Source: Phyllosticta citribraziliensis
Lineage: Eukaryota
Direction: 5' to 3'
Assembly: GCF_038025025.1 (NCBI RefSeq)
Contig: NW_027117353.1
Coordinates: 124,001 to 188,000 of the forward strand
Length of the DNA stretch: 64,000 bases
Positions within the stretch are counted from its first letter, which is position 1. Each line of letters begins with the position of its first letter. The notes below the pieces were generated by a model, which worked only from the letters and a program-made list of their open reading frames with translations, made no database searches and was not told the DNA's origin. Below, piece by piece: positions 536 through 21,085 of the stretch. The position numbers and the translations under genes are program-made.

Positions 536-900
536 TTTCGAGGTACTATTCGTGCGGCTTAAAGGTGTCGAGGAGATGATGAGCTCAAGAGATTTGCCAA
601 ATCAAGAACGATGGATGAATTGTCTTGAAGAGGTTGCGATTCGGGAGGGCTGAGAGAAGAGGAGGATTGGGGTTGGATTATCACTGCGACAATCCCAGGT
701 GCCCAAGAAAACATGGAAGAAAGTAATGGCTTTTGACGCAGATCGAGAGGCCTTGCAACATGGAAATCTTATGTTGTTCTGGGTGTTCGTAAAGTGGAAG
801 TGATTCTTTCCCAAAAGGGCCCGGCCGCATATACTAACCGAAAGTAGTCGCCGACATGTGCGTGGGCTATGTTCGCTTTCTCTCCAACGCGACCGTCTCA

Positions 901-911
901 TCGAGCCGCGA
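901..911. promoter_or_regulatory. Putative AflR-type Zn2Cys6 site TCG-N5-CGA (TCGAGCCGCGA) in the NRPS/P450 divergent promoter
   Basis: Exact TCG-N5-CGA pattern; a similar site lies at 5847-5857 upstream of the AflR-like regulator. Confidence 0.35.
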
Positions 912-1796
912 TTATTCGCCGTGAGTGGCTTGGCTGGGAACTCGACTCAGCTTACTTCCAGAACGCTGCAGGTCCGCAGACCCTGGAGTAGTGGTTCCCG
1001 ATTGTGTGGCTTCGAGAGCCAAATTTTGGAAATTGAAGATTTGGGCACTGTCAATTCGTGAGAGCTCAGCCTTGTGGATCTTGGACTCGTGTTCCAAGGT
1101 CTATTCTCAACGAGGATCCTTCTTACCTCACGATCCGGGCCTGTCGTCGTTGGACCAGTCTTGTCCAACCGGAATGCGCCAGGCAGATGACGAAAGCATT
1201 GCATGTTCAGTTTCTCGTGCGTCTCTGCATCGAATTACATCTCGAGGTCATGACTTTGCATCAAGGCGGAAGAGTAACCTTGTTGCAATGCTTGACCAAG
1301 CTTCTAGACGTTCAGTGCTCATTCGCTCCCCGTACTGCTGCCGAAATACCAACTCCTCTTTGGAGCTTCTATGTTGCGCGGTAGTGTGGACTCAGCATCC
1401 GATGGAGAACTCTTGCAGTGGTCCGAAAACCCAGAGGGAGCATCCTGCTGACCGCACAAGTGTCTACGGCGAATTTGGAGGCAGGATGCCTCGAATGATG
1501 TTGGATTCGTCTCTGCCATTTGTGTCTCCGAGTCGCATCACTCGCCTTCCACGGAGCGTCCGCGGCAATCCGTGGATTTGCTGCTTATTCTCTCCCATAC
1601 TCAGGTGAATTAGTGTAGTCAGTCATACGTGCCGACAAAGGCCTTTCCATCAGGAGACAGGAACTGCCCAATGAACTCGTCGGAATTGGGGATATTCAAA
1701 AGGACCAAGAATCGCGACTTACACAATACACTTCTCTGCAACAGATCACTTCCACTTGTCTAGATTAGCTCAGGGACTCCCCCTCTTCGATCCAAC

Positions 1797-3724
1797 ATGG
1801 ACTTCCAAGACGCCTTTCTCGCTCAGTCTTCTAAGCATCTCTCTCATGATCTTTTCTTTCTCTTGGGAAGATACTCGAAGCGGCCCTCGATCCCTGCTGC
1901 TGCCATCTTTTCCAGGCTGGGCAGGGTTGCTAATTTGACTCTCTTTGTTCTCTTCACTGTGGCGATTGGAATTGTAAGTCTTGTTCATCTCTTTGAGAAG
2001 AATGTCACTTACAAATTTAAAGGTCGTTGTGGACATTGTATACAAGCTTTACTTCCATCCCCTGGCCAAGTACCCTGGACCATTCCTCGCAAAAATCACA
2101 AACCTCTACTCGGCATATCACTCCTGGAAAGGCGATATCCCTATCGACCAGTGGAGGTGTCACCAGAAGTACGGTGACAAGGTCCGCTATGCACCAAACA
2201 AAGTCATGTTCAACTCCGCTGGTAGCCTCAAAGGTTTGTCTGCCTGCAGCACTCCGTGTCCTGGAACATGGCAGCTAACAGGATTTTCCGAAACAGACAT
2301 CTACGGACATGGAAAGAATGTCATCAAGGGAGAGAGCTATATGGTTGCCGTCCACTTTGTTCCAAACACAGTCACAGCCCGTGACCGCAAGGAGCACGCT
2401 CGCAAGCGTCGTGTTGTGAGCCAAGGCTTTTCCGACGCCGCTCTCAAGTCCTACGAGCCTGCAATCATGAGGCACGTGCAGAATTTTCTGGATGTCTTGC
2501 CCCTGGGATTGAGTCCAAGCTCATTGTCTGCCCCGATTGACCAGGATGGATGGTCCAAGCCTCAGAACATGGCACGGTGGTGTGAGTATTTTCCAAATGA
2601 TTCTAGACTCAAACAGAAAGCTGATAGTGCTCTCAAAGGCGATTTCCTCACTTTCGATATCATGGCCGAAGTGATCTTTGGCATGGAGTACAAGCTGATG
2701 GAGAAGCCGGAGCACCGCTATGTCCTCGAAGCCATCGCAGACTCCAACGTTCGAATTGGATCCGTTGGACACGCTCCTGAGCTGCTTTGGAGGCGCCTCG
2801 ACAGGGAGCTCTTCCCAAAGGCGATCCTCGGACGCAACCGTTTCCTCGGATTTACCAAGCAGATGTTGCAGGATATTGCGGCCAAGGATCAGCTGGGGAC
2901 CCGGAGCCACAACAACATCTTTTCCGCCTTGATGAAAGCGACGGATCCGGAGACTGGTTCTGGATTCGGCCTTCCCGAGGTAGCATCCGAGAGCACCACT
3001 TTGATTGTTGCCGGTAAGTGACGCCGAATGCTGACTGGGATGGTTCAAGACAAGCATGCTGATACCCTGGGCAGGTGCCGACACGACCTCGACAATCATG
3101 GCCGGTGCCTTCTTCTACCTCTCACATAACCCGGCCGCTTACTCTCGCGTCGTCGAAGAGGTTCGCTCCACCTTTGCTTCGGCTGCATCGGTCCGCACGG
3201 GGCCACAGCTGAGCAGCTGCGTCTACCTCCGCGCTTGCATTGACGAAGCCGCACGCCTTTCCCCTGCCGTCGGCACTGCCCCCTGGCGCACCGTTCTAGA
3301 CGGCGGCATTGCTGTCGACAACGAATACATTCCCGGCGGCTGCGAAGTCGGCGTATCCACCTACTCAATCCAGCACAACGAGCACCACATCAGCGGCGAC
3401 CCCTTCGAGTTCAGACCAGAGCGTTGGATCGCAAACGAGGCGGAAGGCGGAAGACGAGAAGTCGAAAACATCCACAGCGTACACACGCCGTTTTCAATTG
3501 GACCGAGAGGATGCATCGGCAAGGGTTTGGCCATGAATGAGCTGATGCTCACTTTCGCGGCAGTGTTGGTCGAGTTTGACTTCAAGTTGGCGGACGGCGA
3601 GAGGCTGGGAGAGGGAAGCCCTGGGGCCGAGTGGGGTCGGCACCGTGTCGGCGAGTATCAACTTTACGACCACGTGGTGAACGCGAAGGACGGCCCGCTG
3701 CTGAGCTTCCGCCGGAGAGGTTAG
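1797..3724 (+). CDS. Cytochrome P450 monooxygenase, 5 exons (introns ~1974-2022, 2234-2296, 2582-2638, ~3013-3074)
   Basis: N-terminal TM anchor followed by HPLAKYPGP; I-helix AGADTT; K-helix EAAR; PERW; heme motif PFSIGPRGCIG; canonical GT..AG introns join the track ORFs 1797, 1981 and 3056. Confidence 0.95.
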
Positions 3725-4315
3725 AGGAAGAAAATGGAGCAGTTCAGACAGTTCACTTGACAGCATTTTTCCAAATACCAAGTGCTTCAAAATTTCGAGC
3801 ACTACTTTTGTTCCATTTCTCGTTGTCAGGTACGATGGCGTTGGAATTGCGGAATAGCTCAATCGTGTTTAAGCGCCGTGTGTGGTCACTGCACGATGAC
3901 GTACGAAGAAGATTCTGCCTCGTGTCAAATGCTAGTCGCAATGTCGAAGAGACACATATGCCATACATAGAAACTCATTAGTCAAGACTGGTGCAACCAC
4001 TCGTGGGAACACAATGAAGAAACAGGGAGGGACTGGTCAACGCTTACGAAAAGAGGAAGGAAGGACTACGGTCACCGAAGTGGACTCGAAGGAAGACATG
4101 CTTGCACAAGTCATACCATACGGGCGCTCAAGCCACGCTGGTTCTAGGAGTTGACTGATGAAGGTGGTAGAATACCATGTATTTGATTCTGCGTCTCTTC
4201 CCTTGGCCCCCCAAGTTTTCGTTTGCACATTCCCTGTACTGCCCGCCGTTGTATCTGTCTAATCCTTGTACTCCGGAGCTCCCAATGATTTTCGTGTCGC
4301 CCAAGTCTGCATTGT

Positions 4316-5598
4316 TCATGCCGACTCAGGTAGTTTCCCAAATATGGTGTCCAGTTGCATGACTGCTAGCCGCAAGTTCATGGCATCGAGTTCCCCACCG
4401 ACGCCCGCCGCATCTTCGAGGTCGTTCAGCCGCGCCACGCAATTCCGCACCATATTAAACGTTTCCCGAGCCTTTTGCAATGCCAGTGATACCAGTGACT
4501 TCCTGATGACGTCGAGCGGCTCTTGAGATGAGATTTCGTGTTCGCCGAGAGTGATGCGTAGAGACAGCAGAGAGTCGTCCTGCTGTCGTTCTGAAAATCG
4601 AAGCAACCAGCGAAACACAAGGCTCAGCGACATGATCATCAGAATGAGTGTTTGGTGATCCGACTGGCAACGTGAGCAACGCAAGAGAGCCATCGAGGTA
4701 TTGAGTGCGTCTAGGCTTGTCGCTAGGATTGTATCGCTGCGAATGCTACCGTACTGTCGCTCCGTATCTTTGAGTCGGACGAGACCTTCAGCTTGGATGC
4801 GAAGGCATTCGCAGTGCTGCTTCGATGGTACCGGCTGAGTAGTGAAATTTGCTGGAAGGGTTGAGTCTTCAAAGGCTGCCGTCGATTGATCCGGGATTGT
4901 GCATTCGAGTTCAGGGTTTCCGTAGACCGAGAGAGGTGGACTGAAAAGCGCGTCCAGATTCACGGGATTCGGAAGACACGGATCAATCATTAGATTCTCG
5001 GTGGGCAGACTGGAGAACTGTTGGCGCTGTCAGCCTCGCTCGTCTTCAAATTGAACACAAGCAACTGCGATCGGGAGATAGGACTCACATTCCACTGGTT
5101 TTGTACGTCAAAGTCAAATCCAAAGTCTTCGAGAGAATCGGAATTTGAGCTACTTGAACCGCCAACTCGGGACATGGGCGTCAAGTGGCCATATAGACTA
5201 AAGTAGTCGCCTTCGGTCGTGTCGATACCTGAATACCCCCGGCTGAAGTCTGGTTCAGGGGTTGATTCCACTGGTTTGGAGACGCTGGAATCACTTCGAT
5301 GGCGTGGGGAGGGGAGGCAAGGCGGCGTTGTTTGTCCACCGGAAGCAGCCTCGCTCATTTGTCGCAGGCGTTCCAGGGTCTTTTTATTCCTGCTTCCTTT
5401 TGGTTTGCCGAGTTTCGCCGCAAACGAGTACACGCATTCGACGCCAGAGTCGAAACATCTGCTGCATGGCTTTGTTCCAGAGCAGCGGACTTTCATTTGA
5501 TGGCAGAGGTTGCAAGCTGCGCGAAGCTTCTTGGTTGTTCGGCTCGCAGGGCTTGTCGAGCGCGACGGGGAGACTGACGGAGTAGCTTCTGAAGCCAT
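4316..5598 (-). CDS. Zn(II)2Cys6 pathway-specific transcription factor, AflR/GliZ type (intron ~5018-5088)
   Basis: KLRAACNLCHQMKVRCSGTKPCSRCFDSGVECVYS binuclear cluster; C-terminal CEC...LLRCSRC segment typical of AflR-like cluster regulators; a phase-0 intron (gtgagt..caacag) joins ORFs 4990-5676 and 4316-4990. Confidence 0.9.
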
Positions 5599-5846
5599 GG
5601 TAGGTCGTTTGATCTGCAGGACTTGGCGCAAGGTTTGAAAGGGATAAGGATTGTCAAGAAGAGCCAAGATGCACACGACAGAATGCCAATTTGATGCTTG
5701 ACTGCAGAGCTTGGGACTGTTTTATTCAACACCAAGCTTTGGGGCGGCATAGCCACTGCCTTGCGGGGCGGACCGCGTAGCTTGAGCAAAAGGCATATCC
5801 ACGGATCTTGCTGACGGACTCCATGGAGATGGCGGTGGCCTCTGAT

Positions 5847-5857
5847 TCGGCACGCGA
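5847..5857. promoter_or_regulatory. Putative AflR-type site TCG-N5-CGA (TCGGCACGCGA), ~250 bp upstream of the regulator's ATG
   Basis: Exact pattern match; shares TCGCGnnYCGA (reverse strand) with the 901-911 site. Confidence 0.35.
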
Positions 5858-6725
5858 GGGTGGAGGATTCGGATTCCACGATATGTTTAGGTCGTTGCTG
5901 TATGTACCGCCGTGGCGTCCAGGGCGGTGTCAGGCGTTTGCTTGACAGGACTCTCTGTACCCAGCCTGTGCCTTAGCGAAAATCCCTCGGCCCTCCATGA
6001 TCTGAGTTGCTGACATGGATCTAGTCTAGCGAAACCAGAAGCTCGCTAATGTCTCGAGCATAAAGCGTGAAGTGAGGTTGGTGCTGACTGGCTCGGACTT
6101 CTGCCTTTTTCCCCAGGCGGACTGCCGTGAAGCCAAGGCGTTTGTGGCCGCTGTAATAGGTAAAATGCTGTTGGCTGACAGCGGGAGTGGCTGGGGACCC
6201 CTCTTTCTTTCTTTTGGTATTGGTTGGCTTGCGCCCCGTTCGAGCATACAACGGGGCATTGGATGATCTCACTGCATACCTCAACCATGCGACCGGGCTC
6301 GAACAGCACGACAGCTCCAGGTACCTGGATGGTCGGCTTTGAGGTCTAGGCAGGCACCCGTTTACGGGTTGATCCGCCCCCACCCAGCCAACGCGGCCCC
6401 CAAGCGTGTGAGACCACGTCCGGGCTTCCAGCAGGACTGGAGCTACCTCCGGGAAATGCAACGGTACCATTGGCTCCTAGATGACTTAATTCAACGCGTC
6501 GCGCGACCGCTCAGAGTTACCAGCAGAGATGAGCTGTCGTGTTGAGCCATCATTTTCTAACTGGCATCTCTGATCATTACAAACAGCAAATGTTTCTGCC
6601 AGGGTGGGGCAGTTGAATGCTCCATAGATGCGAGCTATTTCGGCATCTGCATGTATGCATGCAAAATTGATGGCGCGTAAAATGTCGGTTTGCGGTGTAC
6701 CTTGCGCCCCCAGTGACGCATGAGG

Positions 6726-9211
6726 TCAGCCAGGCCCTAGAGAGAAGTCCATGTCGTTCAGAAGCGAGTTCCAGTTGGGCGTGTCCAGCCCTGGTGCAAC
6801 ATCGAAGAAGTCTGACCAGAGCTGGTCCCAGTGCTCTCCCGGGTCGACAATGCCGTCTTGGGGGCCCTCGCTCCACGTGTGCGGCACATCATCCGCGCCT
6901 TTGCCAGCCCTTGAATCGCCGGGATCCCCGAGCCCTTCGCAGTCCTTTCCAAAGGAAGAATATGGCATGTTTGAGCCACCGCCAAAGGACTCTGCGTTCT
7001 GCCCGGTTTGATACGCGTCGGGTGGGCTTTTGTGCTTTTGTAGCATACCTCGCAGTGTGTCTATACCTTTTTGAAGTCCTCGGCTGGCAATTGTTGATTC
7101 CTGCGTGTCTCTCTCTAGAACTTTGCAAGCAGCCATCACCTCGGCTTTTCGCGCTTCCACGTTGGGCTCGTTGGGGTCGAAGCAGGCGTTGGTCGCAAGA
7201 ATAACGGCAGCCATGAAGACGTGATGCATGACATGGACAAACCGAGTGCCATCCAACTCGCGGGGCTCCAGGTCATCCATGGATCTGCGCAGCTCCAGAA
7301 CGGCGTGCGCAGCCCTGATGCAAGTCATCCGGCTGAAGGCATATTTGGGGTTGGATGATCCTTCGAGAAGGAAGGGGCGGTGGAGTCGGCAAATTCTCGT
7401 CTGAGCGCTGAAGTGGACCATGGTCCTTTGCCACGCGATGTAAGGTCTTTCTCGGCAGATATTTCTGCTCCGTTCGATATTTGCCGGATCCAACTGGAAG
7501 AAAAACGGAAGTGCTTTGAGGTAGTCTTGAAATTTTGCGTTCAGATTGAGCACCATGTCGTAATCGAGCTCTCGCGGCTCGAGCAATGTCGATGGTAAGG
7601 AGTCAACTACTTCCCGGCATAGCTCAGCAAGCTTGATTCGCTGGATGAAGGAAGACATCGACGTCGGTACGGTGAGCGGGAGGTTGCAATGCGCTTCGCT
7701 GGTCGTGATGAGCTCATCGTCGGCGTTGACGGGATAGGAAACCCTCATTTGCTTCGGGTTGATTGCATAGGTTCCTTCCTGGGGCCCTCCAAGAAAAGAA
7801 AGGAGCCAGTCAGATGACACAATGTGCCACCATATGCGTCTTTTGACCTCAACTTCGATCATGTTTGAGCCGTTTACCTTGCGTTCGTGCTGGCTTTGAG
7901 GAGTATCGAGATGGTGGATACGCAAACTCTGGGCCATCAGGCAACCCATGCTCCGCAGCAGATGGAACGTTGTTGAGAAGCCGTCCGAGTTGTTGAATAA
8001 GTGGGTCAAGATACTAATGGCCTGAAGGGCCATCATCGAGGGCTTGACTGTTTGCCCATCTTGATCAACCAACGACACAGCAATCTTGCTGAAGACATTG
8101 AAGGCATTCCTGGCCGTCGCGAGGCTCACTTGGAGCTTGTCGCTCAGGTTCTTCGTCCAAAAGTAGGCACTACTGGCAAAGATGCTGAAAAGGAGTAAGA
8201 GCGTCGTACGGGGAGGCTCCGTCCCCTCAATCAGTCCCTGATAAGTTTCCTCGACGATAGTCCGGGTAGAGGGAACGTGGAGCAGTCGGTACTTGCAATC
8301 TACGACCAATGCAAAGTGATCTAAGAGCTCAAGTGCGTGCTTCCGGGCTGGCAACTGGTCACAAAGCCGCCCGGACGTTGGTTTTTGATTCCTTCCAGCG
8401 AGGCTGGACAAGAGATTCAAAGGACTGTCATTCCTTTCGGCTGTCTGTAATTATCACATTGAATCAGTACGAAACACTTGAGAAATGAAGGATCTGGAGA
8501 GAGGAGCGCAAACAAGAAGCATCCAAGCCCCCAGCCGGGAGATTAAAGAACATTCGAGTCCCCGGCGGTCATAAGTATGGTGAGCATGATATTCCAAGAG
8601 GCCAGAAGTAGCCAGAAGGATTGGGAGTATTCAACCTTAACAAAATGATGACCACGGACAGAAATTGAGTGTTGTGTACCCCGACGTTTTGAACCAGGCC
8701 TCGGCCAGAAAATAAATCAACTTACTGCATGTGTGGTGAGGGACAGGACAGAATTTGGTGTTGTGGCGATGCCCTCCAGCCACCTCGAGGTGTCGTCATT
8801 CCCCGTCGGCTCGGCGTTTGGCGTTTCTTCCTGTGTAACAGAAATGGCCCCGTGGCGGACGAGAGCCATCGACGAAGACAGGAGACCGGAAGCATTATTA
8901 TCAGGTGAGGACAGGAGACCAGGTGCATTCGTCTGCGGATCGCCTTTTTTGAACACGGCTCGTTCGAGATTTTGAAGTCTTTGGAGGATTTCTTCAACCG
9001 GCGGCATGGCAGAGCCAGGCATGGTACTTGAGCTGGAGGGAGCAGGTCCTTGTCCAGCGTACACGCATTGCGCGCCTCTCGTTGAGCAGTTGCTGCATGG
9101 TTGGCTTCTGTCGCACCGCAGCTTTTTGGTCCGGCAGAGCTGACAGGACACCGAAGGCTGGGTCCATCGTTGCCCGGTAATGACGGGTTGGCCTTGCGCG
9201 TTCCTCTTCAT
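6726..9211 (-). CDS. Zn(II)2Cys6 transcription factor with fungal-specific middle homology (Fungal_trans) domain (281-nt intron 8445-8725)
   Basis: SCQLCRTKKLRCDRSQPCSNCSTRGAQCVY; MHR signatures AQSLRIHHLD, EVKRRIWWHIVSSDW and RLHRPF; a phase-0 gtaagt..ttacag intron keeps the frame. Confidence 0.92.
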
Positions 9212-9687
9212 GGCGATGTGTCTGGTTGCAGACGTAAGAACCGGACAGGTCCGCGGAAAGTGAGTGCAGATGTTGTGGTCGCTTTGGCCCCCAGGGTGTC
9301 CCCCGGAAACGCCAAAAGTCGTGGCACACGCCACGAAACCAAAGGAAGAGAATAGGAAGCACTCAGAAGCTGGAAAAGGATATTTGAAGACAGAGAATTG
9401 AAGCAATTCTGATCCAGAGTATCCAGGAGCTTTCAGACATCCAAAAAGAATCTGGACGGGGAGCATTTACCTGCATAGATGCCGAAGGGTGCACCTCTAC
9501 TGTGCCACGACTTTCCGGCCGAGGGACGCTCACAGCCACTAAGCTCAATGTGGCAAGTGGCCCGCGGGGCCCGCGGAGCATCGATGGGATCTTGAATGTC
9601 AAGTTGCTTTATACATACCAGCGGCGCTCTTGAGAAAGCTGAGCAAACAAGCCTTTCCATTTCCCAATCCAAGGATCTTGATTCATC

Positions 9688-11210
9688 ATGCTTGACCAAA
9701 ACAACGGGTTAGAGCCACCAAACGGAGGCCTTCGTGCCTGGAGTGTCGTTCTTGGGTCCTTTCTTTTGCAAATGTCCTCTTTTGGATACATCAATGCGTG
9801 AGTATCGATTCTGACCAAGAGAGACACCTTGCTAATGAATCTCAGTTGCGGAATTTTCCAGTTCTACTACCAAGAAATCTTGCTCCCGAACAAGTCCTCG
9901 CAGCAACTTGCCTGGATAACGACTCTCCAAGTCTTTCTCTTGTTTGCGCTTGGTCCTCCCGTAGGACATCTCGTCGACAAGTATGGCTCCAGGCCTGTGA
10001 TTGCGCCTTTTGCAGCTCTTGGAATCCTGGCCCTGGGATTGCTCAGCCTCTGCAAGGAGTATTATCAGATCATGCTCTGTCAGGGATTCCTCTTCGGCCT
10101 GGCCTGTTCCGGTACGACGCTACCAGCAGTCGTCAGTGTCTCTCAGTGGTTCTCAACCAAGAGGGGTCTCGCAGTCGGTATCGCTAGCAGCGGCAGTAGT
10201 TTTGGTGGCGTCTTTTTCCCGATCATGGTTTCCAAACTGGTCCAAAACCGTGGTTTCCCGGCCGCGGTACGATGGTCAGCCTTGATTGTTGGCGTCAGTC
10301 TCTTCATTGGCGTCCTGTGTTGTGCCAGCCCTTTTCCATCCAAGAGATCTCAAGTCAAGGTGCAACAGCGCGACAGCATCGATGTCGAGAGCAGGCACTC
10401 CAGTGGAGACAGCATCAAGAGCAAGCGCTCCGACGCCGAAAGTTTCTCAACCGCACCACCGAGGACGTCGAACGAAGCTACTATGCACCAGCTCCAGACG
10501 GAAGACACTCCTGAGAACCAAAGCCCAGCAAAAGTCAGTGGTCTCAGCGGCCTGCGCCACAACGCTTTTGCATGGACAGCATTCGTCATCGGCGGCTTCT
10601 TCTGCATGTGGTCCCTCCTGGCTCCATTCAACTACCTCCCGGAAATGGCTGTGCAAAATGGGATGACGGTAGATCTCGCTCAGTACACTGTCTCCATTGC
10701 CAACGCAGGATCAATGGTTGGTCGGATAGTCCCGGGGAAGCTCGCGGATCACATCGGTCAATTCAACGTCATGTGCATGGTGACAGCTGGATCTGCCATC
10801 ACATTGCTGGCGTTTTGGTTGCCGTTGAGCTTCCACCCTTCGAATGCCGGGATCATCGTCTTCGCAGTCGTGTACGGCTTTGTCTCTGGCGGTTTCGTCA
10901 GCTTGTGCTCGCCTTGTGTCATTGCGCTGGTGGACGGCCGGCTCGAGGATCTGGGAGTCAAGTTTGGATTGGGCTGCATTTGTTTGGCGCTCGGGTAAGT
11001 CTGCCGACTGAAATACGTGTGGTTCCTTTGCTAACCTTTTGCGACAGTGCATTGGTCGGACTTCCAGTCCTTGGAGCTGTGCGGGACAACCTTAATGGGA
11101 GCTTCCACGGGCTCATCGGCGTAGCGGGAGCAGTCATGGGGCTAGGTGCCATTTGCATGTGCATGACAAGAGTCAAGAAGGGTGGCTGGAAGTTGACGGC
11201 GAAAGTGTAG
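9688..11210 (+). CDS. MFS transporter, monocarboxylate porter (MCH-like) family (introns 9798-9845, 10995-11047)
   Basis: PPNGGLRAWSVVLGSF start motif; GHLVDKYGSR (motif A); QWFSTKRGLAVGIASSGSSFGG; GRIVPGKLADHIGQFN; many hydrophobic TM segments. Confidence 0.93.
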
Positions 11211-11941
11211 GAGCAAAGCCGACCAAACTGGGGCCGTTCGAACCGCAGCGGACGGACTGGAATAGCTCGGTTGCACATAAGCGTTGTACGCTATATGTTT
11301 TCGGGTCCACGGGGCGGTGCATCTTTCAGATTTTCTTTTCCCCTTGCCTTTTCTTTCAACGAGAAGCCTTCATTAGATACCCTTGCATAGTACGACAATA
11401 GTCCTGTTGGAGGCTGTAGAACCGAAGTAATTTGCTCGAATTCAAAAATTGCAGATGACAAAAAGGGGGAATTGCTGGTTTGTTGAAGTTGGTACCGTGA
11501 TGAACAGAAAGCCAGAAAGTCGGAAGTCAGAAGCCGCTCGCTTGCGCTAGTCATTTGAGATGACGTCAAGTGACTTGGCTTTCAAAAAAATAGTATGTAG
11601 GCAAACAACACCAAAGATCCAATGGCTTTTCCCCTCGGTGTTATTTGTTGGATTCAAAACATGCAGTCCGTCCTGTGACTTGTAGTCAAGACTACGTGCA
11701 GCCCGATGTGATGGATCTGAACACATTGAACAGTAGCCAAGGTGGGTTCCTCAAATATCACTCCACGAACCAGTCCATCGAATCAATAACTCAAAATTGG
11801 CTTCCAAAAAGACTGTCTGACTCCTAGCGGATGCATGAGAAGAAAAGTAATGAGATACAAATTTTCCATTGCATGCCAAACAGCCTCGACTTCAGTTTTC
11901 TTCCATCCCAGACTTCCGTAGGCAAGCTTTGGGTATCCCCT

Positions 11942-12844
11942 TCAGTCCGCGGTCGCCTGCGGTGTATGCGGTTGGCCCCCAGTCGCTTCACGCCCCTCAG
12001 CATCGTCTGTGTTGGCTACCGGTACCCACTCACCATCATTCCCCAACGACTCGATTTCGAAGACACAGTCCACCAGTTCCCCCAACGTCGCGGGCATCCT
12101 TTTGTCGCCATGCGGCTCGATCTCTAACCTCTCCTGCCAGACCCCGGGAAGACGTTGGAACAGCGATACGACCTCGAGAGATCGGTTGTGGCACCCTCTG
12201 CGGTTGGAGTGAAACAGAAATCTTGGCAGGAACTCTGAGAAGCTTTGTCCTAGTTCGAGTCGAAGAAAACGGAAATGGAGATCGGCTGTACTGAGTGCGC
12301 GATCTTTTGGTGGCAGAAAAATCTCGTCCAAATCGCGTAGAGCGTTTTTGAATGAGAGTGGTCGAAGTCTGCGTGCCTTCTTCTGGCGACGGCGATAGCC
12401 GTACCGGTCTTGAAGGAAGCGGCGCATCCAGCCATGGGCGCTTTCGATGAGGTAGTCCAGCTTGCGATCTTCGTTGTGGAACCATCCATCATGGTCCGCG
12501 ATCGTCCTGACCAGTTTTTCAGACCAATCCTCGTATCCTTCGCGATTCAATTGGACATCATCCTCGAGGGGAAAAGGTTTCGACACAGAGGTTGGTGCTC
12601 GGTAGTCCAATCTCGAGCGGATGGCTTCATTTTCTTCCTCGATCGTTCTGAGCGAGTCGACTTTGTCTTCGAGGGAGTCGACTTTTTCTTCGAGGTCCTG
12701 GATATGGTTTCTAAGATGACCGAAAGTTCTGAAGGAGCACCTGGGGCATGAGCAAGATGGAGAGTCGTTCATCGGTGCAGTGTTGATGTTTTCTAATTCA
12801 GCTGCACTTCTGAAGTCGTCGGAGTGTACGGAGTGCTGTGACAT
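11942..12844 (-). CDS. Intronless hypothetical protein resembling a retrotransposon Gag capsid (coiled coil + CA-like domain), without pol
   Basis: ATG in ctaccATG context; heptad region LEEKVDSLEDKVDSL; Gag-like pattern YEDW...F..EDRKLDYL...A.GW...F...L..L...F; major-homology-region-like FLRLELGQSFSEFLPRF. Confidence 0.55.
   Translation of the reverse strand: MSQHSVHSDDFRSAAELENINTAPMNDSPSCSCPRCSFRTFGHLRNHIQDLEEKVDSLEDKVDSLRTIEEENEAIRSRLDYRAPTSVSKPFPLEDDVQLNREGYEDWSEKLVRTIADHDGWFHNEDRKLDYLIESAHGWMRRFLQDRYGYRRRQKKARRLRPLSFKNALRDLDEIFLPPKDRALSTADLHFRFLRLELGQSFSEFLPRFLFHSNRRGCHNRSLEVVSLFQRLPGVWQERLEIEPHGDKRMPATLGELVDCVFEIESLGNDGEWVPVANTDDAEGREATGGQPHTPQATAD
12654..12695. repeat. 21-bp tandem duplication (1 mismatch) encoding one extra coiled-coil heptad
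   Basis: GAGTCGACTTTGTCTTCGAGG followed by GAGTCGACTTTTTCTTCGAGG. Confidence 0.9.
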
Positions 12845-14145
12845 GGTAGTGAGTGCGAAGAGGATGGTGGTAGCAAAGTGATGGTAAGATATGTTCGGTT
12901 GTAAGAAGCGGTGATGGTTGACTTTAATCAAGCTCGACGAAACGTGTCTTTAAGTCATTTCTTCTGCAGCCAGGAGCAGCCACAGTTGCTTGCTGGCAGG
13001 TGTCATCGTCGTGAGATGTAGGGGCAGCATGCCTGCTCCAAAAGGAAGTGGGAGCTTCCCGCAACGGAAGCGGTCGCGCAGACGCTCTGCTCGGAGTTTA
13101 CTGGTGTCCGATCTCCCCTCAATGCCTTCCTTAACAGAGACACGTTTAGAGCACCCTGATCAAAGTCCAAGCGCCATGGTTCTGGCGCGAATCACAAGTT
13201 CTGCATTCGTAGACAGGTTTGTTTTGACTGCGATACCCAGACCACACTGAATCGGAGCTCAGACTCAACCTTAGCCATATCCTTGATGCTGCAAATCCCA
13301 ATAATCTGTTTCCACGTGCTGTCAGAGTCTTCCAAATGTTTTACACGAGCAAGTCGAAGGCTTACCTCAAAACGAACTTGGTATCGACGCTATATTTAGC
13401 GTCGTTTGACAGGATTCACTTGCACATTTATGCTTGGCTGCTTACCACGGGAAGGATAAATGGTGAGAATAAATCCGAGATTCACATCCGCTTCAAGAGA
13501 GCAACGAAGTCAGAAGGCTCGACTTCCGGAGGGCGTCCAAGGCTTGGTTATGAAGGTCGTGGCACACACAAGAGCAGAGAATCAGTCTCGCCTATCAGGG
13601 AGTATTCGTACGCTGTAACTGCGACTGGCAGGGAGAATTCAAGCGTCGAGTGTACTGATTGGGGGGTCGTGTTTGCCACGACTTTTGCTACCAAGCCTCA
13701 GTCATATTCGATGGAAGTGCAACACCTTGCTCTGGGATTTCTTCAGCCATCAGCCTCCAGTTTTGTCTCCGGGATTCGCTTCACTTCCTGGCCGCTGGAT
13801 TCTGCCCTTTGCCCAAAGGAACGCCATTTCGGTCGAATCTGTACGCAGTTTGCGTTTGGTGTTGATTAGTGTTAGTCAAAACCTGATGGCGAAGTTGGTG
13901 CCTTGCCGTCCACTGGGTGGTCGCCGACTGCTTTTCCGGCCATGTCTCCGAAACGGTCTCTAGCTCCCTAAGTTGACAGGTCGGGTCGCCGACCAGCCGT
14001 GCTAGCATCAGACAGACCGCGTGTTGGGAGCCCAGCGAGCCTAATGCATTTTGCTTATCCATAAACGCGGTATAAGACTGTTGCAGCAAGTCCCCAATTC
14101 TGATTTTGAGTGTAGTGTCTTTGTTTCTTTTCGGGGATTTCCAAC

Positions 14146-14930
14146 ATGGGGCTCATTGAATACCTCTCCTTTCTTTTCGCGACCTTGTCAGTGCAAGTCT
14201 GCGCGCATGGCAATCAGTTCGGTCTCGTTGGCCCTCAGAACCTCATGCTTTTTCTGAACGGGTTCCATTTCATTTCTGGGGAACCAAACCACTACCTTCA
14301 AGCAAACCACCACTGCGCGATCATGAATGAGGAATTTATCCAATGCACGATATACGTACCTGGGACCAATCCTGCTCGTTTGGCAGGAGTCGAGTACATC
14401 ATCAGCGGCGACGCGTTCTCCAGATTACCCATGGGAGAGAGGCAACTTTGGCATAGCCACCAGTTCGAAGTAACGAGCGGATTCCTCGTCCAGCCAGGGA
14501 TGCCTGGACCCGTTGACAATGAAGTCATGAAGATTCTGGTCAACAGTTATGGAAAGGTATGCTGGTGACGACATAGCAGCGTATCGCCTGTTGTTGACTT
14601 GCGCAGACTTTCCATACGTGGCGCTGGGATCAAAAAGACAACGAGCTCCCGTTGGGTATCCCGGAAATAGTGAACGGCTACACGGGACCCGGCCAACTTC
14701 CGCAGGCTTTCGTGGACAAACGCGACGAGTACTTCGGTGTGAACAGCACCGACATAAGCAGCCGAAGAAGAGCAGCCAACATAACGGCGCCCCCAGTGCA
14801 GCGCGGGGCGGATATTTGGAAAGAAGGAATCATCTTGACTCTGGATTTGAAAAATGAGACGAGCAAGAAGAAGCCATTCGAGTGCGAGTCGGAGATGGAG
14901 TTGATGGTCCAAATCAAGGGCAAGGGCTGA
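14146..14930 (+). CDS. DUF1264 (oil-body-associated protein-like) family protein with probable signal peptide (intron 14557-14606)
   Basis: LNGFH...ANHHC...QCTIY...ARLAGVEYIIS...LP..ERQLWHSHQFEV.SG.L..PG, and spliced YGK|TFHTW, match the DUF1264 pattern. Confidence 0.85.
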
Positions 14931-15072
14931 GCATAGTGTCGTCGTCGTGATCAGAGTGTTGGAACCGTTGCGCAAGGAGTGTCGTCGGTGTGTTGTGTAG
15001 CATTGTAGATGGTTTGAGCATTCAGAGCCGTGAGTGTTGATAGATTGCCAGCGGTGAAGAGAACCAAAGAAT

Positions 15073-15096
15073 CGCTTCGCTTCGCTTCGCTTCGCT
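15073..15096. repeat. (CGCTT)n pentanucleotide microsatellite
   Basis: cgcttcgcttcgcttcgcttcgct. Confidence 0.85.
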
Positions 15097-15195
15097 CCGT
15101 GTTCGGCTGAGCCCTAATCGATTGTCGGGCGGGAAGCCCGTGGGGAACGAATCGCGGGGCCGCTCCGTCCGTGAGCCTTTCACATGCAACACCAC

Positions 15196-15201
15196 CCGAG
15201 G
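15196..15201. promoter_or_regulatory. Putative FarA/FarB fatty-acid response element (CCGAGG = CCTCGG reverse complement)
   Basis: Exact hexamer ~120 bp upstream of the PXA1 ATG; fits a peroxisomal fatty-acid gene. Confidence 0.4.
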
Positions 15202-15319
15202 CTCTGCTTGGGACTTCTCTGCGCGTCTCCCCCCGTCATCATGAGCTTCTACATGCCACTTACAGACTCTTAGTTATCTCGTTCATTCTCACATCCCGTC
15301 TACCAAATGACGCGGCACT

Positions 15320-17875
15320 ATGGCCGCCCAGTCTTCTCTTCGCCATAGCGAAGATCCTCTTCTCGCCCTATGGAATCAGTACGCTACCAAGCTTCGAGCT
15401 CGAGCCGGGTCCATCTCCAAAACCACCAAGATCATCGCGACCATCTCCCTCCTTATCTCGATCATAGGCTCTGGTTATGGAGGACACAGGATATGGCGAC
15501 GCCGCAAGGCTGAGAGAGAGCAGGGACGGCGACTGCTGCGTCGCAACTCCGGTCTTCGCGGCAAGGATGGTTCGAGGACCATCTTTGTTCCAACCAAAGG
15601 CAACTCGACGTCCAAGGTCGTGATATATCCTACAAAACCAACCACATTCGACGCACATCGACGCTTGTTCTTGCAACCGCCGCGGGCGGCCGGGCTTAGC
15701 GATGGGTACACGCCGCAAGTACCTCCGCCGCAGACCAAGGCCGGCTTGAACTTGGCTTTCTTGCACCAGTTCCTCAGCCTGCTCAACATCATGATCCCGC
15801 GGTGGAATAGCAAGGAGACTGGACTGCTCCTCAGCCATGGAGTGTTTCTCTTGTTGAGGACATATCTCTCGTTGGTCGTGGCGCGACTAGACGGAGAGAT
15901 CGTCCGTGATCTTGTTGCCGGGCACGGCAAGGGTTTCCTCTGGGGAATCGCAAAGTGGTGTGGTATTGGAAGCTTTGCCTCTTACACCAACGCCATGATC
16001 AAATTCCTGCAGTCCAAGGTGTCCATCGCCTTCCGGACAAGACTGACCCGATACATCCACGATCTTTACCTCAACGAGAACCTCAACTACTACCGACTTA
16101 ACAATCTGGACGGTGGTATTGGCCAGGGTGCCGACCAGTTCATCACGCAGGACTTGACACAATTCTGCGAGGCCGCCGCCGCACTATACTCGTCTTTGGG
16201 CAAGCCTTTTGTCGACATTTGCGTTTTCAACTACCAGCTCTTCCGCTCCCTTGGTCCGCTCGCCTTGACAGGTCTCCTCGTAAACTACTTCACTACCGCC
16301 ACCGTCCTCCGTCGCCTGTCCCCGCCGTTTGGAAAGTTGAAAGCAGTCGAGGCCCGTCGCGAGGGCGATTTCCGAGCTCTCCATTCTCGATTGATAGCCA
16401 ACGCTGAAGAAGTCGCCTTTTACGGTGGCGATCAAATGGAGAGAACATTTTTGGACAAGGGCTTCAAGGAGCTCAAGGGCTGGATGGAGGGCATTTACAG
16501 CCTCAAGATCCGATACAACATGCTTGAAGATTTTGTTTTGAAGTACTCCTGGTCCGCTTTTGGCTACCTCATCACATCATTACCCGTCTTCCTGCCAGCA
16601 TGGGGTGGACTCGGCGGAGCCTCCGAGAGACTTGACCCAGGCGAGCGCAACCACCGCGAGCGTGGCCGCATGAAGGACTTCATTACAAACAAGCGACTGA
16701 TGCTCAGTCTCGCAGATGCTGGTGGAAGGATGATGTACAGCATCAAAGACCTCCAGGAGCTGGCAGGATATACCTCTCGAGTCTACACGCTCATTAGCAC
16801 GCTCCACCGAGTTCACGCCAATGCCTACTATCCTGCACCTGGTCAGCGTGTCGAGCTGTACTCGCTCGCAGATGTCCAAGGCACAGTACACAGGGGCTTC
16901 GACGGTGTGCGCTTGGAGCATGTCCCTGTTGTTGCGCCTGCGCTCTACCCAATGGGCGGAGAAGACCTCATCGCTAGCCTCAGCTTCATAGTACACTCCG
17001 GCGAGCACCTCCTCATCACTGGTCCCAACGGCGCTGGCAAGAGCGCTGTTTCGCGCATTGTGGCAGGTCTTTGGCCAACCTACCGCGGTCTCGTTTCGCG
17101 CCCTCGATGCAGTGGCACAGACGGAATCATGTTCCTGCCGCAGCGGCCGTACTTGAGCACCGGCACTTTGCGTGACCAGGTCATCTACCCTCACACGGCA
17201 GTGGATATGCAACAGGCGGGCCGCCGCGACTTCGAGCTCTCTCACGTCCTCGAGGCTGCGCGATTGGGCTACCTCCCTGACCGTGAAGGCGGTTGGGACA
17301 CTCGCAAGGTATGGCAGGACGTGCTCAGCGGTGGTGAGAAGCAGCGTATGGGTATCGCGCGTCTCCTGTACCATGAGCCGCGGTACGCATTTGTGGACGA
17401 GGGCACCAGTGCCGTCAGCTCTGACGTGGAAGGCCTGCTGTATGAAAACTGCAAGGCCAAGGGCATTAGTAAGTCGACTCCATGCCAGCGATCAAAGCGA
17501 CGCCCATGCTAACACACAAAACCAGCACTCGTCACCATCTCCACCCGCGCCTCTCTCAAGCGCTACCACACCTTCACGCTGACGCTCGGCCTCGGCGAGA
17601 ACGGCGACGAGTGGGACTTCCAGCGCATCGGCACGGCGTCCGAGAAGGACTCGGTCGAGAAGGAACTCGCCGAGCTGCGGGAGCGCCTCGAGAAGGTCGA
17701 GGAGTGGAAGAAGCGCCGCCAGGAGGTCGAAGAGGAGCTGGGCGCGGTGTGGGTCTCGGGCGGTGAGCAGCTGGCGCCGCCGGCTTATGAGGAGAAGGAG
17801 GGTGACAGCACGGTGGACCTGGGCAGAGAGCGGGACGATGTTGCTGTGGAGAGCGAGCCGGAGCCGGGGCGGTAG
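15320..17875 (+). CDS. PXA1: Peroxisomal long-chain fatty acyl-CoA ABC half-transporter (ABCD family) (intron 17469-17525)
   Basis: EAA-like motif ANAEEVAFYGG; Walker A GPNGAGKS; FLPQRPY; signature LSGGEKQR; Walker B FVDEGTSAVS; spliced ITLVTISTRASL tail ending in TAG at 17873-17875. Confidence 0.92.
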
Positions 17876-18069
17876 GGTGGTTGCGTTCTGTCTTGATTCG
17901 CAGGATGTGCTGCGGTTTGCTGTTCCAGGGGCGAGGCGGGTGTTGCGTGTAAGGTACAACGGGCAGACTGGATCAATTATGACACAGGCCGGCATGCATT
18001 CTTGACAATTGAAAGACGATCTTTAAAGCTGAAATTAGAAACAAAGTGCTAGCAGCATAAAGCTTCCCC

Positions 18070-19413
18070 TCATTGCGGGCCAGCAATCAGGCACTTGATA
18101 GCCTTTCCCTCCTTAACGCTCCGGAACGCCTCCTCGGCGTCTTCAAACTTGACCTTCTTCGTAATCAGGCTCTTAACTTCCAGCTTCCCCGACGCAATCA
18201 TGTCCACGACCAGCTGGTAATCGCCGGTGGAGTAGCGGAAAGATCCCGTCACGGTGAGCTCCTTGCTGCACACGGCGGTGATGGGGAAGGTGATCTCGGA
18301 CTGTGCGATGGTCAATGGCTTGAGTTCTGTGCAAAAGGGACGGCGAGAGCGCGACATACCTTGCCGTTGCCAGCCTGCGTAAACCGGCCTCCCATCCTGG
18401 CAACGTGGATAGCCGTCTGTATGCAGACCTCGGCGCCACTAGCATCAATCGCGACGTCGGCACCGCCGCCCAGCTCAGTCTCCAGCTTCATCCTCTCGGC
18501 GTTCTCGGCCGGGCTGGCCCTGTCCGCCTTGAAGCTGTGCGTCGCGGCATACTCGAGCGCAAACTGCAAGCGGTCCTCGTTGACGTCGACGGCGACGACC
18601 TTCTTGGCGCCAAAGACGTCGCGCGCGACGCGGCAGCACAGCAAGCCGACGGGGCCCGCGCCAAACACGACGACGCTCTCGCCCGGCGCGACCTTGGCCA
18701 TGCGGCAGATGTGAACGGCGACGGCGCTGGGCTCGACGAGGGCGCCCTCCTCCAGGCTGACCGACTCGGGCAGCTTGTAGCAAAAGTCCTCAGGGAGGCT
18801 GTAGAAGCGCGCGAGGGTGCCGTCGTAGGGCGGCGTCGCGGCGAAGCGCATGTCCGGGCACTGGTTGTACGTGCCCGCCTTGCAGCGCACGCAGTAGCGG
18901 CATGGTATGCCAGGCTCCATGGCCACGCGGTCGCCCACCTTCAGCGACTTGACGGCGGGCCCGACGGCCGAGATTAGGCCTGCGGATTCGTGCCCGAGCA
19001 CCATGGGCGACTTCACGACGAAGTCGCCGATCCGCCCGTGAGTCCAGTAGTGGACCTACGTTCACCCCCGCTGTGTTGGTTCATGATTCGGTAAGGACGG
19101 ATGGGCGTGGAGTGGTCGACGTACATCGCTGCCGCAAATGCCTGTGTATTGCACGTTGACCTGAGGTGTTGAGGTTAGCTGGGGTTCGCGAGGCCGCGGT
19201 GTCCAGGGAGCGTTGGGGTTGTCGCGTACAATCACATCGTGCGGGTCCTTGATCTCCGGAATTGGTCTGTCTTCAAATTTGACGGCGCCGGGCTTCTCGA
19301 GGACGAACGAAAGGTTCTGCGGTTCGCGATGTTGAGGTTAGCTGCCAGCTTTTCCTGGGAACGCGTGGAGTGCGGGGTAGGATGGAGGGGCAGCGGGGCA
19401 CCTTTTCTCCCAT
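18070..19413 (-). CDS. xdhA: NAD-dependent xylitol/sorbitol dehydrogenase (D-xylulose reductase), zinc medium-chain dehydrogenase, 5 exons
   Basis: Spliced NLSFVLEKPG..KFEDRPIP; GICGSD|VHYW; PMVLGHES; C..C..C..C structural Zn site; FAATPPYDGTL; GAGPVG; GSFRY; four GT..AG introns read by eye. Confidence 0.9.
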
Positions 19414-19673
19414 GGTGACGTTCCAAAAGCGTTGTTAGAGGTCAATTGGATTGCAAATGGCTTTAGGACGCGTCTGAAGTGTTGAGAGGAGGTTGATATA
19501 GGGAGAGCTGCAACGGAGAAACTAGGAGCCAACGCATGCCTGATCCCAATCCCTTTCCGTCTGGTGATGGTGGTCGATGCACTGCGTGCCCCGCGGATGA
19601 CGACATGGGTGGTGCGTTGATTCGCCGTATCAACGACACGCGAATGCGAGCCAAATCCGACTGGTGCATTCAC

Positions 19674-19698
19674 CCGGAATAATTATCCGGCTCTAGCC
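19674..19698. promoter_or_regulatory. Candidate XlnR/AraR element cluster upstream of xylitol dehydrogenase
   Basis: Near-palindrome CCGGAATAATTATCCGG containing CGGATAAT on the minus strand, next to GGCTAG (minus strand, 19693-19698), ~260-285 bp upstream of the ATG. Confidence 0.45.
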
Positions 19699-19848
19699 AT
19701 TCAGGTCGTCGAGCTGATAAAGGGAGTCATTGTCTCTCTAAGTCTCGTATATGCATCGTCTATCGTATAATTCAACGGCAGCCCACAACGACAAGCACAC
19801 AGTTTTTGAAGCGCCCATTTCCATGCTCGAGGAAGATGAAGAACGTGG

Positions 19849-21085
19849 TCATTCCTCGGATTCAAGCTGAAGAAATTCCCGGATGAGCTGATGATGAGAC
19901 TGTGCCATGTCCTGCGCAGGTTCGACATGTTCGTCGTGCTCCACAGCATGAGCCTCGCTGGCATCGAGGCTCTCATGACCCCAAACAGTCCACCAGCAGC
20001 GCACCGCTTTTCGGCCGTCGGGACCGCCCCAGTCGTCGTAACCAGTCTCGTAACCTTCGGCATAGATCCGAAGGCCAATGGCTTGCATCCTGGAAAAGAA
20101 GTCCTCAACCTGCGGCCGGTAGGCTGATCGAAGAGGCAGTTCAATCACCGCTCTTGCCGATTCAACCCGAGACAGCCAGAATGCGATGGTCTGCACGAGA
20201 AGTACAGGGTGTTCGGGGGAGTACAGTGGGTCAGCAGCCAGAATGACATCGAATTTCGAGTCACCCTTGTGGTGAGCATGCTTCACGGCACTTGGTGAGA
20301 GCATCATGGTAGACGGCGTGGTCCAGTCGAGAATCGCGGAAAAGGCGTTTCCATTGTGCTCCTCCAATATGTCTCGATTTGAGTCTATGTTTCGGTCCAC
20401 GTTTTCTATTATCTCGGGGAGGTCTGTGAGAATCACCTCAGCTCCAATGGCGGCAGCCGCAGCAAGCCCCACAAGGCCAGTCCCGGAACCAAGCTCGAGG
20501 ATGGTTGGCGGGTCAGGTTTCCCACTGAAGGGAAACAGTCTCCTGTTGTCAGCCAGCCGATGCAGCTTCTTTGCCAAGAGGTATGAAGAGGCCCAGGTTT
20601 TTAATCCGAGGTTGTCGCCAGTTAGCGGAGGCTCGTAGATTTGTATGTCTTCTCCCGCGCCCTCCTTGGTAAGAGGGATCCAGAACTTGCGCGAGATGGC
20701 ACCCATGCCTGTTCGTCCAGATCTTTCGCTCAAGCGGATGCTTGCTGCTTCCCAAATTTCCACTTTGGTGTCCTCGTCTTGTATCCAGCGCAAGTCACTC
20801 GCAATTATTCGTGTAAGGTAAGCGGCAAGGCCCTCGGGGTTGATCTGTGGAGGAGTAGCTTTCACGGCGCTCGTCTTTCGTCGTCGTCTTGTTTCCAGGC
20901 CCAGGGAGAGCTCTTCGTCTTCGGAATCGCTGCATTCCCACGATGGCGGCTCCGAGGTCAACAAGGTCAGGGTGTTGAGGAGTTCCTGGGCCGAAGGGCG
21001 TGTGTACAGCTGCGGTAAGTCAAGGACTGTCTTGGAGTTAGCAGGCGTTTGCGTTGCGCGACAGTCGGTGCATACCATGTAGCAT
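19849..21085 (-). CDS. Seven-beta-strand protein lysine methyltransferase, Rrg1/Efm2-like (intron 21027-21075)
   Basis: Spliced start MLHVLDLPQLYTRPS; RLSERSGRT; EPPLTGDNLGLKTWASS; motif I ILELGSGTGLVG; LTDLP; LDW; ILAADPLY. Confidence 0.88.

Follow-up and report, generated by a model that had tools for sequence, protein, structure and literature searches.

Has a fungus kept the capsid gene of a long terminal repeat (LTR) retrotransposon as a gene of its own? The question is raised by a 300-codon open reading frame (ORF) in a stretch of 64,000 nucleotides (nt) of the citrus-associated fungus Phyllosticta citribraziliensis (contig NW_027117353.1, positions 124,001 to 188,000 of the forward strand), which we call the window and whose numbering is used throughout. 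An earlier note on this DNA had described the ORF as a solo, intact Gag- or capsid-like gene and as a candidate for domestication. Captured gag genes have been well studied in animals, where they include Arc, PEG10, PNMA, and Fv1. Our analysis leads us to favor, with some reserve, the view that the ORF is a host-resident gene exapted from the gag of an LTR retrotransposon and not a mobile element, because one intact copy occurs in at least six Phyllosticta species alongside a few paralogues. The two parts of this reading differ in strength: the capsid origin is well supported, and the domestication is probable.

The protein and its predicted fold

The ORF runs intact from its ATG to its stop codon without introns, as the earlier note had stated, and it lies on the minus strand, which that note had not given. 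Its product, P0001 (300 amino acids, aa), starts in the context ACCATGTC and contains all the peptides that had been quoted: CSCPRC at residues 31-36, YEDWSEKL at 104-111, FKNALRDLDEIF at 165-176, and FLRLELGQSFSEFLPRF at 193-209. An AlphaFold2 model, built from a 15-sequence alignment, has a mean predicted local distance difference test score (pLDDT) of 73.4, and its 10-residue block means are 72-93 over residues 101-240 and again over the helix at residues 37-79. The model orders the protein as a disordered head (residues 1-36), one long helix (37-79), a linker, and two helical lobes. We compared it by VIA-align with 48,161 PDB chains and considered the best 50 rows: every row from rank 1 to 32 is a capsid domain, whether from a retroelement, a retrovirus, or a domesticated Gag (Table 1); beyond the matches in the table, the dArc1 capsid (145 residues aligned, Z 8.7) and PNMA2 (Z 7.2) also match. 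From rank 33 onward the matches are coiled coils aligned to residues 35-81; they are the sole structural matches of the long helix and bear out the coiled coil that had been proposed there. Coiled-coil models, all below threshold and at residues 32-88, were also the only Pfam families of note for P0001, and a PDB sequence search gave noise only. In the ESM Atlas, a feature search with P0001 reached Retrotrans_gag clusters at 0.92 and 0.91, and the best match of the model in BFVD was ORF1 of a Penicillium metavirus (E 0.019). A two-lobed LTR-retroelement Gag capsid fold, consisting of an N-terminal (CA-NTD) and a C-terminal (CA-CTD) capsid domain, is thereby well supported as a prediction from the model. 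The description of the protein as Gag-like holds, since the fold search recovers both lobes and the protein is homologous to knuckle-bearing Gag-like proteins (next section). A homodimer prediction for residues 30-275 scored 0.08 against a mark of 0.32, which is evidence neither for nor against dimerization.

Two sequence features had been given more weight than they can bear. The first is the N-terminal CSCPRC..H motif: its third cysteine and its histidine are lost in the closest orthologue, P0002, all of its ligands are absent in the orthologues P0003 and P0004, and its region has a pLDDT below 50. Because the ligands are unconserved, we do not regard the motif as a zinc site; the Pfam zf-C2H2_4 match of P0001 has an E-value of 0.36. 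The whole protein holds five cysteines (31, 33, 36, 218, and 260), and a pattern scan found no C-x2-C...H...C pattern or CCHC knuckle, in agreement with what had been noticed before. The second feature is the motif L..L.Q..S..EY..RF, which had been equated with the major homology region (MHR) of Ty3. This equation is questionable in light of the passages of Dodonova et al. that bear on it, and because of them the MHR label should be dropped for P0001. In the model, the LRLELGQSFSEFLPRF motif opens the C-lobe roughly at the place of the retroviral MHR, which is a positional agreement only. The P0001 motif L-x-L-x(3,4)-S-F-x-x-F-x-P-x-F resembles what we take to be the conserved motif of Retrotrans_gag. 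A PDB profile search had an HIV Gag fragment as its best match (E 0.062), in an alignment that paired the last C-lobe helix with the retroviral MHR and the nucleocapsid knuckle with that of the relatives; we did not use it for assigning the MHR, its register being in conflict with the structural alignment.

A protein of this layout might form particles, as Arc and PNMA proteins do, assembling into capsid-like shells whose cargo of RNA or protein moves inside the fungus or leaves it. The retention of both lobes, as in Arc, dArc, and PNMA2, the N-terminal coiled coil, as in Arc, and the full-length matches to the assembled Copia capsid and to the dArc1 capsid all fit such a role. However, P0001 has no nucleic-acid-binding knuckle, and its C-lobe, the site of capsid dimer and trimer contacts, is only 38-43% conserved within the genus; we consider it unlikely that this is what the protein does.

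A Gag lineage and its members in Phyllosticta

The exapted-gag reading gains from the distant relatives of P0001. A phmmer search over 1.84 billion representatives identified 14 proteins at E<=1e-3, and a tree splits the relatives into three groups: the orthologues (support 100/99), a set of Phyllosticta paralogues, and a group of long proteins (support 97/96). The long group has eight members in the tree (P0007, P0009-P0014, and P0016), longer or fragmentary: the powdery mildew Erysiphe neolycopersici contributes three, and the other five come from Logan contigs of 2-6.4 kb. These eight, together with a 130-aa fragment from the European Nucleotide Archive that is not in the tree (P0017), were reached at E-values of 2e-8 to 1e-3. 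The long relatives (470-640 aa) consist of an N-terminal region, a long coiled coil, to which helix 37-79 of P0001 aligns, the shared core, and a C-terminal knuckle-like motif, C-x2-C-x4/5-H-x6-C. This motif is present in six of the eight long-group relatives and in none of the seven Phyllosticta proteins.

Four lines of comparison connect the core with Gag. First, a profile of four orthologues aligned by hhalign with a profile of five long relatives at 98.8% probability (E 9.2e-17, 167 columns), residues 88-267 of P0001 corresponding to 323-490 of P0010. Second, 4 of 11 relatives have Pfam matches below threshold to Gag families (Retrotrans_gag, PNMA, DUF4939, and Gag_p24_C), the best being P0009 to Retrotrans_gag PF03732 (21.0 bits against a cut-off of 24.1). 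Third, residues 320-620 of P0010 lie near the Retrotrans_gag, Ty3_capsid, and zf-CCHC clusters of the ESM Atlas (0.92-0.95). Fourth, residues 323-495 of a lower-confidence P0010 model match the Copia capsid (Z 11.7, 157 aligned) and the PEG10 C-terminal domain (Z 11.3). Because of these profile, Pfam, Atlas, and fold links to the long relatives, we interpret P0001 as the capsid part of a Gag lineage that has knuckle-bearing members. Structure does not distinguish Ty3/gypsy from Ty1/copia as the superfamily of origin: the full-length match slightly favors Copia over dArc1, both for P0001 (Z 11.2 vs 8.7) and for P0010 (11.7 vs 9.4), and the sequence signs hint at Ty3/gypsy.

The spacing of the relatives' knuckle is non-canonical in all six proteins that have it (P0007, P0009-P0011, P0013, and P0014), and none matches Pfam zf-CCHC at E<=0.01. 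Five of these six share an E-x-G-K-x-x-A tail, perhaps the sign of a site for processing or recoding ahead of pol.

Within the Dothideomycetes, HMMER over the full library found no relative outside Phyllosticta at E<=1e-3; a word-index protein search with P0001 returned Phyllosticta proteins only, and a near-length profile search added no family members. Intact orthologous ORFs of 294-304 aa are present in P. citrichinensis, P. citriasiana, P. citricarpa, P. paracitricarpa, and P. capitalensis (43-85% identity). The three orthologue representatives, P0002 being the closest, all have an open frame and are 85, 49, and 43% identical to P0001. Orthologue clusters at 90% identity hold one to five sequences, whose accession numbers suggest a single copy in each assembly. 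Among the paralogues (P0008 and P0015/P0018), P. capitalensis has one protein, of 241-268 aa, and P. citrichinensis another, of 363 aa. In the P. citrichinensis protein the first and second halves share 36% identity (E 5e-28), and because of this similarity we read it as two capsid units in tandem. Judged from accession numbering only, some 90-290 gene models would separate the paralogues from the orthologue. The orthologue tree, with four taxa, carries no information on congruence with the host tree.

The pattern of change in the ORF bears on whether the gene is constrained or is instead a slowly decaying relic, that is, a functionless gag fragment from an old insertion whose frame was kept by luck or whose selection was recently lost. 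Deletions of 6 and 9 nt that distinguish P0002 are also present in the contigs of a second organism, here organism C; both are in frame. In the intergenic stretch 11248-11584, 7 of 10 indels relative to organism C are not multiples of three (both counts are among the indels listed, 12 of 70). The P0002 alignment adds one 3-nt insertion, so that all three ORF indels relative to the closest relative keep the frame. The lobes and the ends differ in rate: the N-lobe is the most conserved part, the C-lobe evolves faster, and the head and the tail are variable (Table 1). A rough estimate against organism C gives about 42 amino-acid changes, or about 0.06 per nonsynonymous site, where an exon of the neighboring transporter of the major facilitator superfamily (MFS) has 3.9% total divergence. 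Because of the in-frame indels, the uneven conservation, the open frames, and the low contig cover described below, these sequences suggest that the gene is single-copy and subject to some constraint.

In favor of a relic one can name the fast divergence within a single genus, down to 43% identity, the dominance of antisense-spliced RNA in the organism of the window (next section), the lack of Pfam-level conservation, and the precedent of the fungal co-opted gag Crtg12, for which the passages of Wang and Han on these genes give a dN/dS of 0.996 (PMC8321522). Nevertheless, despite amino-acid divergence of up to 57% the frame has stayed open in all five named species and in the window, the rates of the N-lobe and the tails differ strongly, every one of the three indels is in frame, and the paralogues have also been kept open, and we judge decay about as improbable as particle formation.

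The locus and its transcripts

If the gene were the gag of a mobile or non-autonomous element, other copies or a pol-bearing master would be expected elsewhere in the genome. Paralogues do exist in the genus, and one UniRef record in the orthologue cluster bears the automatic name 'Transposase'. The absence of mobile-element hallmarks that had been described was borne out within the window. There are no repeat families of at least 40 bp, direct or inverted, in 1-30000, and a self-blastn of 4000-21000 gave no non-self match at E<=0.01. Pfam scans, which took in 13 selected ORFs (>=150 aa) inside 1-21.2 kb and, outside 2-21 kb, every one of the 57 ORFs of at least 170 aa, revealed no reverse transcriptase, RNase H, integrase, protease, or Gag. 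By tblastn, P0001, its orthologues, its paralogues, and the long relatives all match the gene's own locus only, with no second copy in the window; a candidate paralogue at 129-251 (E 0.27) was rejected as part of an AMP-binding enzyme. The indices of repeat-induced point mutation are normal over the gene (TA/AT 0.38; (CA+TG)/(AC+GT) 1.08), again as had been reported, and its GC content at third codon positions is 0.59, with 0.60-0.66 in five neighboring genes. In the contigs of four sequencing runs, compared over 9500-15500, the positions of the ORF are covered by 1-3 contigs per run, as against 6-38 for a true repeat 700 nt away. Finally, one contig of organism C joins the spliced exons of the MFS gene to the whole ORF, and because it spans both we conclude that this neighbor is shared; the synteny was seen for this neighbor in one other organism. 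Given that the 17-30 kb examined hold neither LTRs nor terminal repeats, that the MFS neighbor is the same in organism C, that the 90% clusters are tiny, and that contig cover is low, a mobile element is very unlikely.

The repeat just mentioned, at 13536-13699 (164 bp), has its 6-38 contigs in all four runs, at a depth well above the flanking bins and with many loose ends. Its ends form an imperfect inverted repeat of 30 nt (13540-13569 vs 13669-13698, 80%), and it looks like a dispersed repeat of the miniature inverted-repeat transposable element (MITE) type that is present in transcripts. An Rfam search of 11000-15200, which includes it, gave no match at E<=1. A contig of a third organism, B, joins 11458 to about 13667 and may represent another copy of the repeat beside the MFS gene.

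None of the sequencing runs is on record as RNA. We treat X1 and X2 (organism A, identical to the window; two studies) and X6 (organism C) as RNA-derived because their contigs skip two GT..AG introns of the MFS gene. Contigs of all three runs, from three studies and two organisms, cover the ORF; the contigs themselves carry no strand. Those of X1 and X2 skip 12450-12520, and when the cut is shifted by two bases the ends become GT..AG on the plus strand. For this reason the intron belongs to an antisense transcript; the same splice on the minus strand would need CT..AC ends. Antisense transcription of the locus is therefore observed. Sense transcription of the ORF is likely: the abundant contig of organism C is unspliced across it, as expected of a sense mRNA, and X1 skips a minus-strand intron (GTAAGC...ACAG) located 461 nt upstream of the ATG, possibly in the 5' untranslated region (UTR). 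When the antisense splice is read on the minus strand, it yields the frameshifted 244-aa public model P0005, the P. citrichinensis orthologue, which we regard as an annotation artefact because it was built from the antisense intron used on the wrong strand. That the functional product is a plus-strand spliced transcript (antisense RNA or MFS read-through) or the 244-aa P0005, and not the 300-aa protein, has in its favor the canonical intron removed in contigs of two studies and its use in the public annotation, but we hold it to be highly improbable: on the plus strand no ORF longer than about 100 aa spans the junction, P0005 would require CT..AC ends and has an out-of-frame tail without fold evidence, and the 300-aa frame folds as a capsid and has distant homologues.

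The exapted gene would sit, as the earlier note had it, at a boundary. On one side lies a block (2-11210) that by its sequence looks like a secondary-metabolite cluster, and on the other are housekeeping genes recognized by Pfam (DUF1264, ABC, Noc2, and His4-like). Further along, the minus strand holds a 783-codon open frame at 27142-29490 that matches no Pfam family at E<=1e-5.

Table 1. Features of the gene and its product P0001, structural matches by VIA-align (Z score; rmsd, root-mean-square deviation), and neighboring genes. Identities are to P0002/P0003/P0004.
Feature	Window position	P0001 residues	Strand	Evidence
Gag capsid-derived coding sequence, P0001	11942..12844	1-300	-	stop codon 11942-11944; orthologues
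Variable N-terminus (head), probably disordered, with CSCPRC	12737..12844	1-36	-	pLDDT <50; identity 89/25/11%
Long helix with heptad character (predicted coiled coil)	12608..12736	37-79	-	predicted helix; structural matches; sub-threshold Pfam coiled-coil models
Capsid N-lobe (CA-NTD-like), most conserved part	12305..12547	100-180	-	VIA-align: Ty3 CA-NTD, Arc N-lobe; identity 89/70/65%
Capsid C-lobe (CA-CTD-like), opening with LRLELGQSFSEFLPRF	12035..12304	181-270	-	VIA-align: PEG10, dArc2, MLV, Drt2; identity 82/43/38%
Variable C-terminal tail, low model confidence, no knuckle after it	11945..12034	271-300	-	pLDDT; Cys scan; identity 77/10/17%
71-nt GT..AG intron of antisense transcript, inside ORF	12452..12522		+	X1, X2 joint 12449/12521
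60-nt intron, possible 5'-UTR intron of sense mRNA	13306..13365		-	X1 joint 13305/13366
PEG10 CA-CTD (7lga)		180-271		Z 11.6, rmsd 2.3, 85/85 aligned
Drosophila Copia capsid		89-272		Z 11.2, rmsd 12.0, 149 aligned
dArc2 C-lobe		182-269		Z 10.3, rmsd 2.0, 82 aligned
Arc C-lobe		181-270		Z 9.6, rmsd 2.5, 81 aligned
MLV (murine leukemia virus) CA-CTD		182-267		Z 9.5, rmsd 2.4, 80 aligned
Drt2 (PDB 9rxy)		180-268		Z 8.6, rmsd 2.9, 84 aligned
Ty3 CA-NTD (6r22)		100-182		Z 8.0, rmsd 2.8, 74/74 aligned
Arc N-lobe (4x3h)		90-178		Z 7.0, rmsd 2.6, 69 aligned
AMP-binding enzyme, cut by window end	2-601			Pfam
P450	1978-3724			Pfam
Zn2Cys6 factor, weak AflR match	4316-5721			Pfam
Second Zn2Cys6 factor	6726-9466			Pfam
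MFS transporter	9802-11210			introns 9798-9845 and 10994-11046 confirmed by RNA contigs

Possible function and place among captured gag genes

It is important to consider the results that weigh against an exapted capsid gene. With regard to the fold, a Pfam search of P0001 found no Gag family at E<=10, and Foldseek against PDB found nothing at E<=1e-3, although its ranks 1-11 (E 0.03-0.54) are all retroelement capsids (dArc1, Ty3, Copia, Arc, dArc2, PEG10, and PNMA2). In VIA-align, helical models can reach Z values of about 13 through a common arrangement, without kinship; we find the capsid assignment convincing despite this caveat because the match list is uniform and the two lobes are recovered separately. 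With regard to the lineage, 14 representatives in 1.84 billion make a small family for a transposon lineage. A word-index search for a Gag-Pol fusion among proteins of 1125-3210 aa, a weak test, found none, and two metagenome scans and one viral-contig scan for the DNA context of the relatives returned nothing. Because no pol-bearing element with a related Gag was found, both the mobile source and any target of restriction are hypothetical. With regard to the gene itself, the sequence comparison suggests that the protein evolves fast, which could reflect either relaxed constraint or conflict, and in organism A all the assembled RNA that crosses residues 108-131, in X1 as in X2, carries the antisense splice. 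The proposal of a domesticated solo capsid gene stands in part: its capsid origin, its solo context, and its intact orthologues are upheld, and against it, all RNA signal within the ORF whose strand can be told is antisense. None of the outcomes that the earlier note had named as refuting the idea was encountered.

If the gene is indeed an exapted gag, it would have kept the ancestral layout of coiled coil, linker, CA-NTD, and CA-CTD, whereas pol, the LTRs, and the zinc knuckle at the C-terminus would be gone. The coiled coil may multimerize the protein, and the lobes may make capsid-capsid contacts; the coiled coil, the conserved N-lobe, the fast C-lobe, the lack of a knuckle, and the small paralogous family are features that fit a multimerizing, capsid-contact protein. 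By analogy with Fv1, Ty1 p22, and Drt2, we tentatively prefer, among the possible functions, that of a Gag decoy, which would co-assemble with the Gag of related retroelements and poison their particles. The faster-evolving C-lobe would then be the part that faces the target, and a conserved spliced antisense transcript may regulate the gene. A broader scenario strikes us as rather doubtful: a young, fast-evolving, knuckle-less Gag family, made up of this gene, the 241-268-aa paralogue, and the tandem-capsid protein, that would form particles or decoys under antisense-RNA control, either in a fungal immunity of the Fv1 type against retroelements or, more boldly, as an Arc-like vehicle by which a plant-associated fungus would export RNA or protein.

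Captures of gag in fungi have been described before: three deep events (PMC8321522) and DRT2 of yeast (PMC10951436). In the passages of Wang and Han (2021; PMC8321522) that deal with fungi, the three co-opted genes, Crtg12-Crtg14, all lie above the family level and none is in Botryosphaeriales; co-option was recognized there by shared synteny and natural selection, in a design that excluded events below the family level. As those passages describe them, these are solo, single-copy, gag-derived genes without pol or LTRs, two of the three in Dothideomycetes, and they are expressed. They differ from the present gene, which was found only in Phyllosticta (Botryosphaeriales), in that they predate family or order splits (Pleosporales/Mytilinidiales and Tremellales) and are assigned to Ty1/Copia or Bel-Pao. 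According to the relevant parts of Hannon-Hatfield et al. (2024; PMC10951436), DRT2 and Ty1 p22 of Saccharomyces restrict retroelements via the CA-CTD, through capsid-capsid interference. Drt2 is an endogenized fragment of a fungal Gag, as our gene would be, and its CA-CTD superposes on the C-lobe of P0001 (residues 180-268); whereas Drt2 is a CA-CTD only, within a Ty1' relic and with a known target, P0001 keeps the coiled coil and both lobes and has no relic context.

The domesticated Ty3/gypsy Gags of animals (Arc, dArc1 and dArc2, PNMA2, PEG10, and RTL) share with P0001 the bilobed capsid fold and, in the case of Arc, an N-terminal helical or coiled-coil region before the capsid. Their sequence identity to it is 9-16%, and P0001 would be of independent fungal origin. 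The capsids of Ty3 (6r22/6r24) and Copia (8vvw/8s41) have the same two-lobe architecture; unlike these elements, P0001 comes without a knuckle, a protease, or pol, and it gives no score against Retrotrans_gag PF03732. Among the publications on Phyllosticta retrotransposon gag, judged by title and the opening of the abstract, none was about the present gene.

These results are consistent with an independent, genus-level capture of Gag in a filamentous ascomycete, a kind of gene capture that is already known. For the public annotation they bring a correction, the P0005 model being frameshifted. If the reading as an exapted gag is true, the gene would represent a recent, genus-restricted capture in filamentous fungi in which both lobes and the coiled coil were kept, paralogues arose, and the C-lobe evolves fast, and it would offer a tractable system for asking whether fungi beyond yeast use Gag decoys against retroelements.

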